A stretch of 10,026 nucleotides of DNA. Source: a virus (taxonomy: Duplodnaviria > Heunggongvirae > Uroviricota > Caudoviricetes). Location of the stretch: IMG/VR virus record IMGVR_UViG_2706794694_000003. One strand, 5' to 3'. Within the stretch, counting starts at the first letter, position 1, and each line of letters starts with the position of its first letter. Shown in pieces: positions 4,211-10,026 of this stretch. Made by a program: the position numbers and the translations under genes. The notes under the pieces were generated by a model, which was not told the origin of the DNA, made no database searches, and saw only the letters and a list, made by a program, of their open reading frames with translations.

Positions 4211-4465
4211 CTACTTAATGCACTGAGTGCGGATATACTCCTGTGCCCCTTCCAGTTGCATCTGCATCGTCATCAGCCGCTCTCTGAGGGTGAAATAATC
4301 CCGTTCAGCGGTGTCTGCCAGTCGGGGGCTGGTTGCATTATCCACGCCGGAGGCGGTGGTGGCTTCACGCACTGACTGACAGACTGCTTTGATGTGCAAC
4401 CGACGACGACCAGCGGCAACATCAGCGCGCAGAGTTTCATTTTCAGCTTTCGCATCAGCTAACTC
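4211..4465 (-). CDS. Rz: Rz-like i-spanin, C-terminal part (5' end lost in the N gap)
   Basis: The frame is open from the gap edge to TAG at 4211-4213. Translation ...ENETLRADVAAGRRRLHIKAVCQSVREATTASGVDNATSPRLADTAERDYFTLRERLMTMQMQLEGAQEYIRTQCIK closely matches the lambda Rz C-terminus as I recall it. Confidence 0.8.
   Translation of the reverse strand, partial: ELADAKAENETLRADVAAGRRRLHIKAVCQSVREATTASGVDNATSPRLADTAERDYFTLRERLMTMQMQLEGAQEYIRTQCIK
4273..4455 (-). CDS. Rz1: Rz1-like o-spanin lipoprotein, embedded in Rz in another frame
   Basis: ATG at 4455; MRKLKMKLCALMLPLVVVGCTSKQ... has a signal peptide with a lipobox Cys and a proline-rich mature region. Entirely nested within the Rz reading frame, the classic Rz/Rz1 arrangement. 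Confidence 0.75.
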   Translation of the reverse strand: MRKLKMKLCALMLPLVVVGCTSKQSVSQCVKPPPPPAWIMQPAPDWQTPLNGIISPSESG

Positions 4466-4715
4466 NNNNNNNNNNNNNNNNNNNNNNNNNNNNNNNNNNN
4501 NNNNNNNNNNNNNNNNNNNNNNNNNNNNNNNNNNNNNNNNNNNNNNNNNNNNNNNNNNNNNNNNNNNNNNNNNNNNNNNNNNNNNNNNNNNNNNNNNNNN
4601 NNNNNNNNNNNNNNNNNNNNNNNNNNNNNNNNNNNNNNNNNNNNNNNNNNNNNNNNNNNNNNNNNNNNNNNNNNNNNNNNNNNNNNNNNNNNNNNNNNNN
4701 NNNNNNNNNNNNNNN
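4466..4715. other. Assembly gap (250 N)
   Basis: Uninterrupted run of N from 4466 to 4715. Confidence 0.95.
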
Positions 4716-5001
4716 CCGGTATATCGACTTTGATGTACGGGTTAATTTGTCTGGCGACAGTGGCAAGGTCTTTATTCAGGAGGGCTTTGCATTCTGCTTC
4801 GGTATACGTTTTACCGAGCATGATGTCTTTTCCGGTGTGTCCGTGACATACAGTCCATACACCAATGATATCTTTGTATGGTATGTAGCTGACACCTTCC
4901 AGACCATCGTTACCACCTGGGCCAGTGATTAACACAGATGCTATAGCAACAGCCCCACCACCAATAGCAGCTGCAACAGCCTTGCGTAATGATGGCGACA
5001 T
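4716..5001 (-). CDS. R: SAR-type endolysin (phage lysozyme), N-terminal 95 codons; 3' end lost in the gap
   Basis: ATG 5001-4999 with GAGGTG RBS. The Gly/Ala-rich N-terminal segment ([27 protein letters not shown]) is a signal-anchor-release domain, followed by lysozyme-like sequence ([22 protein letters not shown]...). Resembles the phage 21 endolysin as I recall it. Confidence 0.85.
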
Positions 5002-5216
5002 TATTCACCTCTCGCAGCCTTACGCTTGTCTTCTCTTATTTTGAAATACAGATTTGTCAGATAAGTCAGAAGCCCCAGAAGCAGACTTCCCAGCACACCA
5101 ATCGCAGCCCACTGTGATGGACTGACCTGATCCAACCACTGCAAAAACCAGTAGCCGGCACTGCCGGCGGAGGTGCCGTAGGCAATGCCTGTTGATATTT
5201 TTTCCATCTGATACAT
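5001..5216 (-). CDS. S: Class II holin (phage 21 S-like pinholin) with dual-start motif
   Basis: 71 aa, [71 protein letters not shown], with two transmembrane segments and a charged C-terminus. Met1 and Met4 give the antiholin/holin dual start. Stop TAA shares a base with the endolysin ATG. Confidence 0.85.
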
Positions 5217-5246
5217 ATCCCGCCCCCCGACAGACCTGTGCTATCG

Positions 5247-5283
5247 GAAAGAAAAAAGGCCATCAGCAAAACTCTGATGGCCT
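5247..5283 (-). terminator. Intrinsic terminator-like hairpin upstream of the holin
   Basis: On the minus strand: GGCCATCAG-agttttg-CTGATGGCC (9-bp stem) followed by TTTTTTCTTT. Confidence 0.5.
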
Positions 5284-5896
5284 GAATCACCTTTACCAAT
5301 ATTGTATGAAAAAACACGCACGACTAATTGACAATAATTTTCATTTCCATTAAAAAAGATCGCGTAGCATTCTTAATTCATGAGGAACTTTACCCGCCAG
5401 CAATCTGAGTAGCGAAAGCTGTTCATCCCCAATGTTTTTGCTGGCGGGTCCTTTTTTCTACGGTCCTCCTCCCCGGAGGGGGGCATTTCATTATTTTTCT
5501 AATCGTTACTGGTGAGAAGGCGGAAGAAAAAGCCAGTTCTTCGCCCCTAAATAACAGCATGATTCCAGTCCATGCAAAATCTGATTTCCAGCTCACACAT
5601 ACCGAGCGCTGTACAAAAAACCGCCAGCCAAGGCAGTTAAGAGTGTGTTCCCGGGGTTTGCTTAGAATATTTTGTAAGTTGTCCGAAGAGATATTTACAA
5701 CACCAGAATGATGAATCATCAGTCCCCTGCCAGAGGTTCACTACGTAACCTGACCGACAATGCACCATTCTGGTGCTGAAAAAAGAGCACTGGAACTGCA
5801 ACAAAACAACATCACAGAACAGGAGATGGTAAGGAGTCAGACATTCCCACACAATATTGTGTCAGTGCAAATAACAACCTTCGTCTCAAATCTCGC

Positions 5897-5971
<75 letters not shown>

Positions 5972-5974
5972 ATA

Positions 5975-6050
<76 letters not shown>

Positions 6051-6052
6051 GC

Positions 6053-6129
6053 TGGCCCACCACCGAGGACTCGAACCTCGCACCGTCAACTTAGAAGGTT
6101 GATGCTCTATCCGGATGAGCTAGTGGTGG
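6053..6129 (-). tRNA. tRNA-Arg (anticodon UCU), unusual C1:G72 acceptor start
   Basis: Reverse complement CCACCACTAGCTCATCCGGATAGAGCATCAACCTTCTAAGTTGACGGTGCGAGGTTCGAGTCCTCGGTGGTGGGCCA. Cloverleaf folds with a perfect 7-bp acceptor stem, anticodon loop CTTCTAA, encoded CCA. Confidence 0.75.
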
Positions 6130-6130
6130 T

Positions 6131-6207
6131 TGGTGGCCCTTGCTGGACTTGAACCAGCGACCTGGCGATTATGAGTCGCTCGCTCTGACCAACTGAGCTA
6201 AAGGGCC
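6131..6207 (-). tRNA. tRNA with CAU anticodon, most like tRNA-Ile2 (lysidine type, reads AUA); tRNA-Met cannot be excluded from sequence alone
   Basis: Reverse complement GGCCCTTTAGCTCAGTTGGTCAGAGCGAGCGACTCATAATCGCCAGGTCGCTGGTTCAAGTCCAGCAAGGGCCACCA. Closely resembles host ileX-type tRNA as I recall it. Anticodon loop CTCATAA. Confidence 0.8.
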
Positions 6208-6216
6208 GGAGGCAGA

Positions 6217-6245
6217 ATAATAACCATATGTCATCACATCTGCAA
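6217..6245 (-). promoter_or_regulatory. Putative sigma70 promoter for the tRNA cluster
   Basis: Minus strand TTGCAG (6245-6240), 17-nt spacer, TATTAT (6222-6217), about 9 nt before the first tRNA 5' end. Confidence 0.4.
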
Positions 6246-6293
6246 ACTCATCTGACCACCAGCACGTTTAACGTCCTGTGCCGTTTTTCAGGT

Positions 6294-6320
6294 ATAAAAA
6301 AACCCGCTCATCGGCGGGTT
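6294..6320 (-). terminator. Intrinsic terminator downstream of the ORF6N-domain gene
   Basis: Minus strand AAACCCGC-cgatga-GCGGGTTT followed by TTTTTTAT, about 75 nt after the stop at 6397. Confidence 0.6.
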
Positions 6321-6396
6321 TAAGCTGTGTGGCGTAGTAACCACTCTTAACAGGATATTCAACTTTTTACGATCGTAAAGTTTTCGGAAAAAATTT

Positions 6397-6960
6397 TTAA
6401 AACCGCATCAACCGCTCCACCAGTTGCTCTTTACGGGCAACGATCCACCCGTGTTGCTCCAGATAAAATTTAAACCGTTCCAGAGTACATACCATCGCAT
6501 CGGCGGGTACCTTTTCCGTGAACTCAACCTGACCGTGTTTATCGAAGTGGCTCAGTAATGCGCATCCATCATTTTCGATAGATGTGTTTTGTGCCGCTGG
6601 TGGCTGTTTCTGGTTGAAATAACAGTCTTCCAGTTTTTCGAACACTTCCCACGCCTGATCGGTTTCGAGCATTTTGGCGTGACGGGCTGCGCCACGTTCT
6701 GTCCAGAGGATGAGGGAGCGAACGTTACGGGCAATTTTCACAGAAACTCTTAAAGAGTTTTCGTTCTTCAACTCTCGTAACGCATCACCTTCTATCAGGA
6801 AAAAATGTTTACCTTCTATAAACCGTTCTTTGTTTCGATTGAAATTGTTTGTCAAACGCTGGCGCTCTGTTCCGTACAAATCAGCCAGCAGCTCTGTTGT
6901 CATGACAGGAAGATGGTTATGCGTAAGTGACGGGAGTTTTTCAATAGACGTGCGATTCAT
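6397..6960 (-). CDS. ORF6N-domain (KilA-N/Bro-N-like DNA-binding) protein with a C-terminal domain of unknown function
   Basis: Chosen start ATG 6960-6958 (MNRTSIEK...), 7 nt after AAAGGA; an ATG two codons upstream at 6966 is an alternative. N-terminal region LPVMTTELLADLYGTERQRLTNNFNRNKERFIEGKHFFLIEGDALREL...WTERGAARHAKMLETDQAWEVF matches the ORF6N pattern as I recall it. The track's 253-aa version begins at GTG and adds a Trp/Cys/Phe-rich stretch overlapping the promoter, which I discount. Confidence 0.7.
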   Translation of the reverse strand: MNRTSIEKLPSLTHNHLPVMTTELLADLYGTERQRLTNNFNRNKERFIEGKHFFLIEGDALRELKNENSLRVSVKIARNVRSLILWTERGAARHAKMLETDQAWEVFEKLEDCYFNQKQPPAAQNTSIENDGCALLSHFDKHGQVEFTEKVPADAMVCTLERFKFYLEQHGWIVARKEQLVERLMRF

Positions 6961-7166
6961 AGACATGTCCTTTCGAATATTTTGATTTACCCCTTTTGAG
7001 AGGGTGACCGGGCGCTCAAAACCGTCGAAAGTCGGCGGGCGTATTTCCATTGCTGGTATTGTATTAGCCGCACACCCGGTCATAAACCAAGAATTCTGGA
7101 CACAAAAAAACCACATGGCTATCGGGTGTGGATACCGCTTTCGAGGTGTTTTGAGCACCGCGGGGA

Positions 7167-7195: not shown

Positions 7196-7320
7196 CACCG
7201 TCAGGTTCCAATCATCGGGTGGTGAGACGCACAGGGTTGGAACTACCGGGAAACCGACCGGCGAGCTTTTCAGCTCCCCCATGCGCCCCACCATAATTCA
7301 GATGTGCGCGTGCATACGAC

Positions 7321-7345
7321 AATAAAAAACACGCTCGCGGCGTGT
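7321..7345 (-). terminator. tR'-like intrinsic terminator ending a short late leader transcript
   Basis: Minus strand ACACGC-cgcga-GCGTGT followed by TTTTTTATT, about 55-80 nt downstream of the predicted pR' start. Confidence 0.55.
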
Positions 7346-7406
7346 GTCTGTCGCGGTCTCTATCCGGGGTTCCAATCCCGACGCCAGATTTTGCTGGCGC
7401 GTGAGG

Positions 7407-7436
7407 AATATAGCCCCGGACAATGTGTCTGGTCAA
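7407..7436 (-). promoter_or_regulatory. pR'-like late promoter immediately downstream of Q
   Basis: Minus strand TTGACC (7436-7431), 18-nt spacer, TATATT (7412-7407), 5 bp past the Q stop codon. The predicted 5' leader forms a CGCCAG-caaaat-CTGGCG hairpin (7382-7399). Confidence 0.5.
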
Positions 7437-7440
7437 GCAC

Positions 7441-7827
7441 CTACATAATTCGTTCTACGTATCTGTCCATCTCCAGCCGGATATCAAGCATCATCAACAT
7501 GCCATCAATAACCCCTTCCGCTTTCTGCAGGCGCTTGCCAATACAGGTATCCGAACACCCATGTTTCCGTGCCAGACTCATAAAAGTCATTCCACCTACG
7601 TAATAATCCACCAGCAAATCGTGCAAATCCTGATTTTTCTTGTTCAACCGGGCCATACAGCCACAAATTATCATTGCATCATCATCAGAACACTGAGGGC
7701 GTGATTTCACTTTCGACGGAATTAACCCTTTAAAACCAGCAGCGATCGACGCCCAGGATACATCTTCATGAGTGTTTGCAGCCCAAGCCCCCCACCGTTC
7801 CATAACCTGCTGAATATCACGCGCCAT
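7441..7827 (-). CDS. Late-gene antitermination protein Q (Stx-phage Q933-like type)
   Basis: Chosen start ATG 7827 ([25 protein letters not shown]...) with AGGTGA RBS; the track's upstream ATG at 7848 adds 7 codons. Cys clusters (CGCMARL, HGCSDTC) suggest zinc binding. Resembles the Q of Stx2 phages as I recall it. Overlaps the rusA stop. Confidence 0.8.
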
Positions 7828-8188
7828 CGTTATCACCTGTGATTTCATAAATCTTCACGCCCAGTCGCCCACCAGGAACGAGCTGACCGCGCACAATATT
7901 GATTTCATCAAACTGCTCGTCGTCTATGAGTAGTCCGGCATGCGTCAGCGCATCCAGTGGTGCTTTCAGGATATTGTCCAGGTCACGACGGCGCTTATCC
8001 GGTGGCTCTGCAATAATCTTTATCGCCAGCCTTCCGGACAGGTTTAATTTCAGCCGCTGCTGGCGAACAATTAGCGTCACATCACGGCGATAACGCTCAC
8101 CAACTTTTGATACAAAATATGTGCTGCCACGACGTCGCCAGTAAGTATTCACCGTCGGCGGATAAGGTAAAATAAACTCATGGCGCAT
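7817..8188 (-). CDS. rusA: RusA-family Holliday junction resolvase
   Basis: 123 aa; [15 protein letters not shown]... and [29 protein letters not shown] match the RusA catalytic region (compare DRRRRDLDNLQKAAFDAL in E. coli RusA as I recall it). ATG start, in the nin-region position before Q. Confidence 0.85.
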
Positions 8189-8441: not shown

Positions 8442-9833
8442 TCAAAAGAAACGCTCCATCTTACTGCTGTCGGTACGTGTATTGCTGTATCTGCGCGGCT
8501 GGGGCTGCCGCATTGGGGTGGAAAGAACCTGTGCGCTTTCCTGGTCCACAGGCAGAAAATGTCCGTTATAAAAACGCCGGTAAATCGTCCCCAGAGAACC
8601 GTTACGTTGTTTCGTGATATTAATTTCTGCTATGCCTGTAGCCTGTGTATCCGGGTTGTACACTTCATCCCTGTAAAGCATCAGAATGATGTCTGCATCC
8701 GCCTCTATTTCTCCGGAATTTTTCAGGTCTGAGTTCATGGGACGTTTATTGGGTCTGGACTCCACACCGCGGGAGAGCTGGCTCAGCGCAATCAACGGAA
8801 AACCACCGGATTTTGCCAGGCCTTTAAGCCCCTTTGAGATTTCACCCACGGCAAGGTCATGACGCCCCGTGGTTCGGGTTTTTATCAGCCCGAGATAATC
8901 AACCACCACCAGCGCCGTTTCCGGATGTTTAATCAGATGGTGTTTCGTTGTTGCGCATATCTCATCAATGGTCAGGTTCGCCTGGTCCACCATCCAGATA
9001 TTGCGCCCGGTCATCCGCCCCACCCCTTGTGAGAAACGCGCCCAGTCTTCATCTTCAAAGTGAGCCACAGATTTCAGGCGTGATACTGGCATCCCTCCAG
9101 CCGCAGACACCATACGTTCACCAATCTGGATGTTCGCCATCTCCATGGTGAACAGAAGCACACCATGCCCCTGCTCAGTCACCTTGTCGATGATGTCCAG
9201 CGCAAGTTCGGTTTTCCCCATCGAAGGACGGGCGGCAATGAATACCAGGTCTCCGGGCTCCATACCGCCTGTTTTTGCGTCCAGTTCATCAATACCGGTC
9301 ATCAACGTCCTGGATTTCTCCAGCCCCTGATTCCGGCATTCAACACGCTCAACCACTTCCGGAAGCACATCATCAATATGTACCGGCTGAATGACGCCCT
9401 TTCCTGTCGACAGTGTGACCATCATGTTCTGCGCATCCTTCAGGGCATCTTCAGCTGCTTCACAGGTATGCGCATCACGTAATTTCTGCAGCGCCTCATT
9501 CAGTGTTTTTTCTGCATCGCGCAGTGCGGCATTGCGCCGCAACGCTGCAACATAGTGCTCCAGTGAAGACTTCACCCAGGTTTTACGCCCGGTATCAGTA
9601 ATCACCGGGGCAAGTTCCGGCATCTCATTACACAACAGCACGGGGTCAATCACTCCTGAAACACGGGCCTGTCTGCAGATGCCTGTGTAGATATCCCGAT
9701 ACGCTCGTACAGAAAAAATGTCCGCCGGTAGTGTGATCAGAATATCCATCACTTCATGATCTGCCCCACGCAGAAAGAATGCGCCAATGACAGCGCCTTC
9801 CAGGTCATCATTACGCCAGACTGGTGTTGTCAT
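8442..9833 (-). CDS. Replicative DNA helicase, DnaB family (phage-encoded)
   Basis: Chosen start ATG 9833 with GAGGTG RBS (MTTPVWRNDDLEGAVIGAFFL...), giving 463 aa. Walker A ARPSMGKTELAL and a DnaB-like C-terminal domain. The track's 47 extra N-terminal codons begin at GTG and look non-coding. Confidence 0.85.
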   Translation of the reverse strand: MTTPVWRNDDLEGAVIGAFFLRGADHEVMDILITLPADIFSVRAYRDIYTGICRQARVSGVIDPVLLCNEMPELAPVITDTGRKTWVKSSLEHYVAALRRNAALRDAEKTLNEALQKLRDAHTCEAAEDALKDAQNMMVTLSTGKGVIQPVHIDDVLPEVVERVECRNQGLEKSRTLMTGIDELDAKTGGMEPGDLVFIAARPSMGKTELALDIIDKVTEQGHGVLLFTMEMANIQIGERMVSAAGGMPVSRLKSVAHFEDEDWARFSQGVGRMTGRNIWMVDQANLTIDEICATTKHHLIKHPETALVVVDYLGLIKTRTTGRHDLAVGEISKGLKGLAKSGGFPLIALSQLSRGVESRPNKRPMNSDLKNSGEIEADADIILMLYRDEVYNPDTQATGIAEINITKQRNGSLGTIYRRFYNGHFLPVDQESAQVLSTPMRQPQPRRYSNTRTDSSKMERFF

Positions 9834-9948
9834 GCAGCCACACCTCTGATACAAGAACGGTAGCTGGGCCAGTTGAACGACAACCAGTTGCGCCCCCCGT
9901 CTGTGATCCTGTCGGCAATGCGGGGGCTGATGAACGCTGGATTTGCCC

Positions 9949-10026
9949 CTATATTTCCAGACACCTGTTATCACTTAACCCATTACTGGCTTGCTGCCGT
10001 AGATATTCCCGTGGCGAGCGATAACC
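9949..10026 (-). CDS. 3' end of an upstream gene (likely replication initiator/helicase-loader class), partial
   Basis: Only one minus frame is open from the window edge to TAG at 9949-9951 (...GYRSPREYLRQQASNGLSDNRCLEI). Function is inferred from lambdoid gene order only. Confidence 0.3.
   Translation of the reverse strand, partial: GYRSPREYLRQQASNGLSDNRCLEI

Follow-up and report, generated by a model that had tools for sequence, protein, structure and literature searches.

Two conserved modules in the non-coding interval between the tRNA genes and the holin gene of a lambdoid prophage, a probable region of RNA-level control

Between the tRNA-Gly gene and the holin gene of the lambdoid prophage recorded in IMG/VR as IMGVR_UViG_2706794694_000003 lies an interval of 680 bp, positions 5217-5896 of the 10,026-nucleotide (nt) stretch that was analyzed, hereafter the window. 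This gap is considered on the minus strand, which is that of the late operon and also carries Q, the isrK/C4 antisense-RNA module, the tRNAs, the holin, the lysozyme and the terminase (Table 1). The original prediction, made from the sequence alone, held that the gap has no convincing gene, is AT-rich and bears several structured elements in the slot where Stx phages keep their toxin genes, and it proposed a small RNA (sRNA), regulatory sites or the remnant of a deleted moron. The boundaries it gave are exact. The bias toward AT is only moderate, with a GC content of 44.4% in the gap and 51.9% in the whole window. The structured elements do exceed chance: a scan of positions 4950-6500 finds eight terminator-like sites where 1.5 +/- 1.1 are expected, and sub-segments of the gap fold with z-scores of -3.2 to -4.6. 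A covarying hairpin, at least three intrinsic terminators distributed over both strands and promoter-like sites lend support to the sRNA or regulatory sites that had been suggested. We consider the gap to be a non-coding region of RNA-level control, built from two conserved modules that move independently, and we give this reading a probability of about 0.6.

The gap is a composite of two conserved modules with independent distributions. In a megablast search of 5,426 complete Escherichia coli genomes, the full 680 bp was recovered from only nine, whereas the pre-holin block 5597..5217, here called module (b), occurs at 84-88% identity in 1,451 of them, at 948 chromosomal and 643 plasmid places; it is this disparity that separates the two modules. 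Relatives of module (a), the segment 5896..5613 that follows tRNA-Gly, are found at about 70% identity in 233 of the same genomes and are nearly always unannotated. Across loci, module (b) is preceded by varying DNA and followed by varying genes. Upstream of it lie a methyltransferase gene, the sRNA STnc100 (Rfam) and the antisense 3' end of a PapR-like RNA in loci L002 and L008, and insertion sequence (IS) remnants in ColV-type plasmids and in the pap island of clone D i14, where the holin is gone. The distance between the modules is constant in 16 loci (231-232 nt between the search patterns, 256-257 nt from start to start), the sole interruption seen being an IS3-family insertion in L032. 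Among GTDB species representatives the module core was found only in E. coli and Shigella, which adds no diversity for covariation.

The gap is non-coding. None of its six open reading frames (ORFs), of 37-98 amino acids (aa), matches a family of Pfam (E<=1) or PHROGs (E<=0.1) in runs that score the flanking holin and anti-repressor strongly, and no frame is kept in the relatives. In the nine E. coli genomes that have the 680 bp at 99-100% identity, PGAP annotates nothing over the match; strains CFSAN029787, VL46 and RMDEC364 have the identical region. Five alleles of module (b) differ by many insertions or deletions (indels) of 1-2 nt, and the module is therefore non-coding.

Table 1. Features of the gap and its surroundings in the window, with the basis of each assignment
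Feature	Position	Strand	Basis
Module (a), structured RNA trailing tRNA-Gly and reaching the terminator U-run, ~284 nt	5613..5896	-	tRNA-Gly linkage, class alignment
GCACUG, invariant in all classes	5863..5868	-	predicted pairing with CAGUGC 5792..5787
UGUGAUGUUGUUUUGUUG, 17/18 identical to GcvB nt 66-83 (R1 seed)	5799..5816	-	blastn vs K-12 gcvB
Long hairpin, 29-pair main helix and apical helices (~35 predicted pairs)	5694..5782	-	pairing and covariation
Intrinsic terminator of the tRNA cassette, AACUGCC-loop-GGCGGUUUUUUGU	5613..5638 (stem 5638..5619)	-	scan
Module (b), conserved non-coding pre-holin block	5217..5597		84-88% identity in E. coli genomes
Second plus-strand terminator-like hairpin GUCCUCCUCCCCGGAGGGGGGC with U-rich tail	5463..5497 (hairpin 5463..5484)	+	scan; fold
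Plus-strand intrinsic terminator (predicted termination)	5394..5456	+	scan/fold
Candidate antisense sRNA, ~90 nt (93-nt stretch, ~7 nt past the promoter-like site)	5364..5456	+	fold
Promoter-like site: TTGACA (5329-5334), 17-nt spacer, TAAAAA	5329..5357	+	read from sequence
Strong intrinsic terminator GGCCAUCAG-N7-CUGAUGGCC-U6	5251..5283 (stem 5283..5257)	-	scan; z=-4.6
G-run and CGGG, Shine-Dalgarno region before the holin ATG	5219..5228	-	27-variant alignment
DnaB-type helicase	9974..8442	-	
RusA	8188..7817	-	
Q antiterminator	7848..7441	-	PF06530
isrK / c4-a1b1 / C4 antisense-RNA cluster	7413..7215	-	Rfam
ORF6N anti-repressor	7158..6397	-	profile searches (Pfam, PHROGs)
Intrinsic terminator downstream of the anti-repressor gene	6300..6321	-	terminator scan
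Sigma-70 promoter-like site TTTGCA-18-TATTAT, ~10 nt before tRNA-Met	6217..6246	-	scan
Four tRNA genes: Met(CAT), Arg(TCT), Thr(TGT), Gly(TCC)	5897..6207	-	ARAGORN; Rfam tRNA hits
tRNA-Gly(UCC)	5897-5971	-	ARAGORN
Class II (phage 21 S-type) holin, Met1/Met4 dual starts	5001..5216	-	PF04971 E=1.5e-35; PHROG holin families
Lysozyme, broken by a 250-N masked run	5001..4459	-	
HNH endonuclease and terminase	farther downstream of lysozyme	-	

Module (a) forms the 3' trailer of the tRNA cassette. Its first relatives were obtained by blastn, the segment 5868..5692 being about 72-76% similar to the DNA after tRNA-Gly in phages SerU-LTIIb (both copies) and vB_EcoS-683R6. A scan of IMG/VR with the conserved 3' arm of the hairpin, TGATKCATCATYCYGGTGTTGTAAA, yielded 91 loci which, together with the window and the loci fetched previously, make 96 pattern hits. 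In 83 of the 96, a tRNA-Gly(UCC) gene on the same strand precedes the hairpin pattern by 173-190 nt, and this linkage is independent of what follows, which may be the present holin at +478, a holin of about 83% identity to it at about +565, or sequence with no match to this holin. The trailers fall into three classes, W (the type of the window, 21 copies), T and S (the majority, of the SerU/683R6 type). All three share the hexamers GCACUG and CAGUGC, a U-run, the long hairpin and, unpaired on the 3' side of the latter, an invariant CUGGCAGGG; the conserved U-run (5784..5779) precedes the hairpin. In the RNAalifold consensus of classes W and T the two hexamers form a helix that closes a variable domain of about 85 nt; they are also kept in class S, and the helix offers no covariation since neither side varies. 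Classes W and T have their 3' part in common, and there the stem of the terminator differs yet pairs (ACUGCC/GGCGGU versus ACCGCC/GGGCGGU).

The long hairpin is maintained as RNA. Among 35 distinct sequences, 97.9% of its cells are paired as against 31-55% in slid controls, and six compensatory pairs are counted as against 1.6 +/- 0.9 in shuffled alignments, none of 500 shuffles equaling the observed value. At least seven positions are G-U in most sequences and would be C-A on the opposite strand; such pairs being possible on the minus strand only, the structure belongs to the late-sense RNA. The search pattern fixed most of the 3' arm, and unbiased variation was sought outside it: a class W variant present in at least ten loci has two 3'-arm substitutions, one turning U-G into U-A and the other a C-U mismatch into C-G, and both improve pairing. 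The covariance-model scan proposed with the original prediction was made against Rfam: at the gathering threshold there is no family for the trailer in the window or in six loci that include class S and T trailers, and at E<=10, cmscan over 5100-5996 returned chance hits only, such as microRNA precursors mirroring the hairpin.

Upstream, the cassette begins with a sigma-70 promoter-like site, and other Met-Arg/Lys-Thr-Gly cassettes whose upstream DNA is dissimilar have a TTGCA-type -35 and a TATTAT or TATCAT -10 in the same place. Promoter, tRNAs, trailer and terminator together look like an autonomous moron. Before tRNA-Thr, class S cassettes with tRNA-Thr and tRNA-Gly only (e.g. L012 ~2130-2244) have a TTGACG motif and a hairpin, GGTTCTGAGGGGGA...TCCCCTGAAGAACC, which is conserved and measures about 50 nt; this hairpin may be a degenerate tRNA or another structured leader.

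Module (b) was aligned from 27 distinct sequences, corresponding to about six real alleles, found at 47 places among the fetched loci and drawn from 46 IMG/VR pattern loci, the window and loci of E. coli and Shigella; no block listed for it in Table 1 has more than two variable positions in this set. Its minus-strand terminator, 5283..5251, has a U-run ending about 35 nt upstream of the holin ATG and is nearly invariant in all alleles, the few C-to-U variants giving U-G on the minus strand. The G-run that follows (5223-5228) counts 4-8 Gs among loci and marks the 3' recombination boundary of the module. The same point forms the junction to a different downstream gene in seven loci. The length of the run also differs among otherwise near-identical loci, and this could be slipped-strand variation by which holin translation is tuned.

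The plus strand of module (b) carries a promoter-like site whose TTGACA and TAAAAA are unchanged in the 27 sequences save for one -35 position in the ColV plasmid allele L009; variation is seen at three or more positions of its spacer and in the sequence immediately following the site. The candidate RNA at 5364..5456 is predicted to fold into a 5' hairpin and a 12-bp terminator stem, within which lies an 8-bp helix capped by a GAAA loop, followed by a U-tract (minimum free energy -30.9 kcal/mol, z=-3.6). The evidence on its strand is weak. Its consensus fold reaches -30.6 kcal/mol on the plus strand versus -26.1 kcal/mol on the minus strand, the inner helix has G-U pairs that are possible on the plus strand only, and the variants of the 5' hairpin (C-G/U-G, U-A, U-G/U-G) pair on that strand alone. 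The minus-strand terminator at 5613 faces the plus-strand terminators at 5456 and 5484 in a convergent layout.

It is possible, if short of probable, that module (b) is chiefly the gene for this antisense sRNA, acting on host or phage mRNAs by analogy with PasA/PasC, AsxR and PapR, whose place is beside the lysis cassette and antisense to late genes. Such a gene would explain the retention of the module in plasmids and islands devoid of the holin. A perfect -35, a 17-nt spacer, an sRNA-like fold with its terminator and U-tract, the plus-strand-only pairing just described and the persistence of the module where the holin is lacking, in the island of clone D i14 and at some 640 places on plasmids, all argue for it. 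They have to be set against a weak -10, the lack of compensatory changes on either strand and a limited diversity of alleles, restricted to E. coli and Shigella, while retention could also be hitch-hiking with iss/bor. The plasmid copies lie next to iss and the copy in the uropathogenic E. coli (UPEC) island about 2 kb from papI; in both settings, represented by L009 2501-2969 (the ColV-type plasmid pAMSC2) and L010 2501-2976 (clone D i14, near papI), an Rfam match to STnc490 comes directly after module (b).

Comparison with characterized sRNAs bears on the same question. The Pas sRNAs of enteropathogenic E. coli (EPEC) adjoin the holin/lysozyme operon (Pearl Mizrahi 2021, PMC8550237; Zhu, Shabalina & Storz 2026, bioRxiv 10.64898/2026.05.13.724894); PasA and PasC resemble the gap in standing beside that operon with tRNA genes nearby. 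The plus-strand candidate, about 150 nt from the holin start, has the position and orientation of PasA (Table S6 of PMC8550237), and both are antisense to the late genes and possess a terminator stem with a U-tract. Nevertheless, the Pas sRNAs A, B, C, D1 and D2 of strain E2348/69, taken by their Table S6 coordinates, show no significant similarity to the gap; for PasA and PasC, blastn at word size 7 gave only chance hits and global alignment gave z=2.3 and z=1.5, respectively. Homology is likewise lacking for a further EPEC sRNA, whose neighbor in prophage PP10 is a pseudo-tRNA-Gly. PapR, an sRNA of UPEC (Khandige et al. 2015, PMC4546395), was suspected because clone D i14 has the module close to papI. 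The window lacks it: exact 12-mers of its 5' and 3' ends, derived from the published primers, are missing there and present in L002 and L008, and PapR was not found in the UTI89 region examined. In these two loci the PapR-like 3' end is antisense to and convergent with STnc100, directly upstream of module (b) (L002 2698-2904, L008 2198-2404). STnc100 scores 114.5 bits in both, upstream of module (b), and STnc100/PasD (RF02076) has no Rfam hit in the window. In other prophages a PapR-like 3' end holds the position that the tRNA trailer has in the window, and the STnc100/PapR-like pair, seen in common E. coli prophages, would place PapR in the Q-to-S moron slot.

The trailer of module (a) could have a function in itself or be a stable by-product, one that shields the tRNA precursor or takes part in its processing. 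Long hairpins are common sites of cleavage in the polycistronic RNAs of phages, and the hairpin of the trailer might be mainly an element for processing by RNase III (or another enzyme) or for stability, devoid of any function in trans, separating the tRNA precursor from the lysis mRNA in the Q-antiterminated transcript and protecting the 3' side of tRNA-Gly. A near-perfect helix of at least 29 pairs kept by covariation on the transcribed strand, at a constant position after tRNA-Gly, agrees with such a role, as does the analogous arrangement in phi467 and PhiR47_1, where the tRNA-Thr/Gly pair is followed by a non-homologous spacer of 292 bp that has a terminator and long inverted repeats. Against it stand the unpaired CUGGCAGGG, which is invariant, and the GCACUG/CAGUGC helix, whose conservation points beyond an unspecific double-stranded site, and we find it somewhat unlikely that processing is the main role of the hairpin.

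For the alternative of an RNA with its own function, the closest parallel is 3'ETS-leuZ (ETS, external transcribed spacer), a sponge sRNA that derives by cleavage from the end of the glyW-cysT-leuZ tRNA transcript; sRNAs of this type are released by RNase E, bound by a chaperone and pair with other sRNAs or with mRNAs. Like the trailer, which extends from tRNA-Gly (ending at 5897) to the terminator 5638..5613 and keeps its tRNA-Gly linkage in the 83 hits mentioned above, 3'ETS-leuZ lies between the last tRNA and the intrinsic terminator of the operon on the same strand. The trailer differs in its length (about 284 versus about 53 nt), in being phage-borne and in having a long covarying hairpin as its dominant feature. 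Nothing specific came out of a literature search on sponges from the tRNA spacers of prophages.

A possible target is suggested by the variable domain. In class W trailers, and specifically in these, it contains UGUGAUGUUGUUUUGUUG, whose match to the R1 seed of GcvB in K-12 gcvB has E=3e-4 for the gap and E=0.004 for the window. No other match of at least 17/18 to any 18-mer of GcvB occurs in the 1.2 Mb of prophage DNA that was compared. Of the 35 copies there, 23 lie upstream of the exact hairpin pattern by no more than 200 nt and 12 are in module-scan loci with class W spacing; wherever the 285 nt around a copy could be extracted in full, they align to the trailer of the window. This resemblance is suggestive, a lead rather than a finding. 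It would fit a trailer acting in trans as a chaperone-bound sRNA of the tRNA 3'ETS type with the variable domain as its seed, through which the prophage would act on the GcvB regulon, made up of amino-acid and peptide transporters, by repression or else by perturbing it through competition. Besides the identity itself and its confinement to class W trailers wherever flanks can be read, the layout of a variable region, conserved scaffold, U-rich tract and terminator is in keeping with this proposal, prophage anti-sRNAs having likewise a variable 5' and a conserved 3' part (PMC4104026). But the comparison with GcvB was made post hoc, prompted by a G/U-rich run of low complexity, and a correction for about 100 known sRNAs brings the E-value for the gap to about 0.02. 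The seed-like segment is partly paired in the predicted fold and not conserved in classes S and T, the duplex energies are not significant (49/300 and 19/300 shuffles are as good), and GcvB (RF00022) has no Rfam hit at E<=10, the similarity being confined to 18 nt of R1. We regard this proposal as rather improbable. Quite improbable too is its extension, in which the trailers would be a family of chaperone-dependent regulatory tRNA-operon tails, with the GCACUG/CAGUGC helix, U-run, long hairpin and terminator as a scaffold bearing an exchangeable seed, that of class W being captured or convergent from GcvB R1. If it held, the prophage would act on the host GcvB regulon from a constitutively expressed tRNA moron.

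The interval has further counterparts in the same genomic niche. Convergent sRNA pairs and the anti-sRNAs AgvB and AsxR, Hfq-bound transcripts that antagonize a core sRNA, occupy the moron site 3' of pR' in lambdoid prophages of enterohaemorrhagic E. coli (Tree et al. 2014, PMC4104026). Like them, the gap lies between Q/pR' and the lysis genes, more precisely between Q and the holin, is non-coding, has facing terminators (5613 on the minus strand against 5456 and 5484 on the plus strand) and places a conserved scaffold beside a variable stretch; AgvB is moreover tied to GcvB, whose seed the class W trailer resembles. The sense RNA expected here is however the tail of a tRNA operon, of about 284 nt, and not a primary transcript of 51-60 nt, and the GcvB-like stretch copies the GcvB seed on the transcribed strand instead of imitating GcvB targets. 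AgvB and AsxR (RF02702, RF02703; conserved 3' part of about 42 nt) are not listed by cmscan at E<=10 over 5100-5996, their lack of similarity to module (b) counts against the antisense candidate, and Esr41 has no Rfam hit in the gap at the same threshold.

The late leader of phage lambda comprises pR', the 6S RNA and tR'. In Stx phages, termination at tR' is described as the source of the sRNA StxS (Sy et al. 2020, as summarized in PMC12197685). Both cases have Q-to-S intrinsic terminators that only Q-modified polymerase passes, as is predicted for the gap, and they illustrate that short terminated RNAs can gain regulatory roles; the elements of the gap differ in lying downstream of an inserted tRNA operon, in their unrelated sequence and in including antisense-facing terminators. 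IpeX of DLP12 was also considered; the nmpC-essD spacer of K-12 shares no homology with the gap, the one common element being a tR'-like stretch of 82 bp that lies outside the gap. The window is thus without AgvB, AsxR, Esr41, STnc100, the Pas sRNAs, PapR and IpeX, and shares their niche and architecture. Sequence strings looked up literally in a collection of 8 million papers gave no match. Both elements are unannotated members of the regulatory RNAs and terminators of the prophage moron slot.

The 82-bp stretch (6379..6298, minus strand) contains the terminator 6300..6321; in local BLAST against L001, L002 and L003 it is found upstream of essD in the K-12 prophage DLP12 (84-88% identity) and downstream of the Q genes of other prophages. 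It is plausibly a tR'/late promoter region and could yield a short RNA of the StxS type. The ORF next to the tRNAs is an ORF6N anti-repressor and not Q, as had been assumed, Q being situated one module farther upstream. Directly upstream of the anti-repressor are isrK (Rfam match of 77.5 bits), the c4-a1b1 targets and the C4 antisense RNA; 7215-7413 and 6397-7158 on the minus strand form an anti-repressor module under antisense control, P1 immI-like or Gifsy-1 isrK-anrP-like, which is inserted after Q and ahead of the tRNAs. A full-length Rfam match to sRNA-Xcc1 (77.4 bits, gathering score 53) lies within the anti-repressor coding sequence at 6998-7081 on the minus strand. On the other side of the gap, a run of 250 N (4466-4715) masks part of the lysozyme/Rz region, and the lysis cassette is incompletely readable.

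That the gap might be the scar of a deleted moron such as stx, made of decaying coding DNA, had some appeal from its place in the Q-to-S moron region and from the cargo found nearby in related prophages (methyltransferase, nanS-type esterases, stx, LT-II). Megablast and blastn searches against 50,697 phage records, a comparison of the kind that had been proposed to reveal deletion scars, gave no DNA similarity to stx or any other phage gene and hence no gene remnant, the only matches being to non-coding DNA, and no domain was hit. Each half is an intact module, conserved from end to end and present without change in prophages numbering from dozens to thousands, and their spacing is constant in the 16 loci but for the IS3-family element. 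The scar is largely refuted and very improbable. The designation as the stx slot holds in so far as this is the Q-to-S moron region, and fails in its detail, for in the Stx phage phi467 (L013 1-1951) stxAB lies upstream of the same tRNA-Thr/tRNA-Gly pair and not in the position of the gap. In the LT-IIb prophage SerU-LTIIb (L011), the unit of tRNA-Gly, trailer and holin is duplicated, and the toxin genes come after the endolysin.

Small proteins overlooked by annotation are hardly credible at all: ORFs of 98, 71, 61, 53, 50 and 37 aa do exist, among them the two minus-strand ORFs already reported (5423..5719 and 5637..5852, 98 and 71 aa), and PGAP sometimes calls a 63-aa ORF in the common 87% allele, but in the window the latter frame is without its start and displaced by an indel of 1 nt, the 98-aa ORF bridges the junction of two unrelated, independently distributed modules, the 71-aa ORF crosses the covarying hairpin whose classes differ by indels, and, as noted above, frames are not kept among alleles and no family is matched.

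The reading of the gap as a region of RNA-level control leads to the following scheme. In the lysogen, the tRNA promoter would drive the four tRNAs and the trailer, and transcription would stop at 5613. Module (b) would serve as an insulator placed directly before the lysis cassette, leak-through from upstream or transcription arising within the module being stopped at 5251, the last gate before the lysis genes. The two antisense-facing terminators (5456, 5484) would probably end an antisense RNA of about 90 nt initiated from the TTGACA site, and would also stop antisense transcription entering from the lysis side. Upon induction, only Q-modified polymerase coming from the late promoter would pass 6321..6300, 5638..5613 and 5283..5251, and this read-through would allow the tRNAs and the lysis genes, holin included, to be expressed together.

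Several points weigh against this scheme. The analysis shows the lack of coding signal, the conservation, the tRNA-Gly linkage, the RNA structure with its strand and the anatomy of the terminators; promoter activity, the transcripts, their ends and the read-through by Q are deduced from sequence, and the late promoter itself was not located. The -10 of the plus-strand site, TAAAAA, does not have the usual final T and for this reason was not flagged by the scan. Module (b) shows no covariation that distinguishes the strands: in its 12-bp stem, one plasmid allele favors the minus strand and one the plus strand. Its persistence without the holin in ColV plasmids and in the UPEC island fits hitch-hiking or an independent function equally well. 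Finally, simple termination leaves the conservation of the long hairpin and its invariant CUGGCAGGG bulge unexplained.

The Q-to-S interval of lambdoid prophages is a site of toxin and moron expression, already known to host the regulatory sRNAs AgvB, AsxR, Pas, PapR and StxS, by which networks of the host are rewired. To these are now added a structured RNA with covariation, carried along with a phage tRNA cassette and absent from Rfam, and a pre-holin module that roughly one complete E. coli genome in four contains, also on ColV virulence plasmids, where it stands beside iss. Both elements should cease to be annotated as 'hypothetical proteins'. If either of them yields a trans-acting RNA, the control exerted by prophages on host physiology would be extended; if both are only terminators or processing sites, they would show how the lysis genes are insulated from constitutively transcribed morons.

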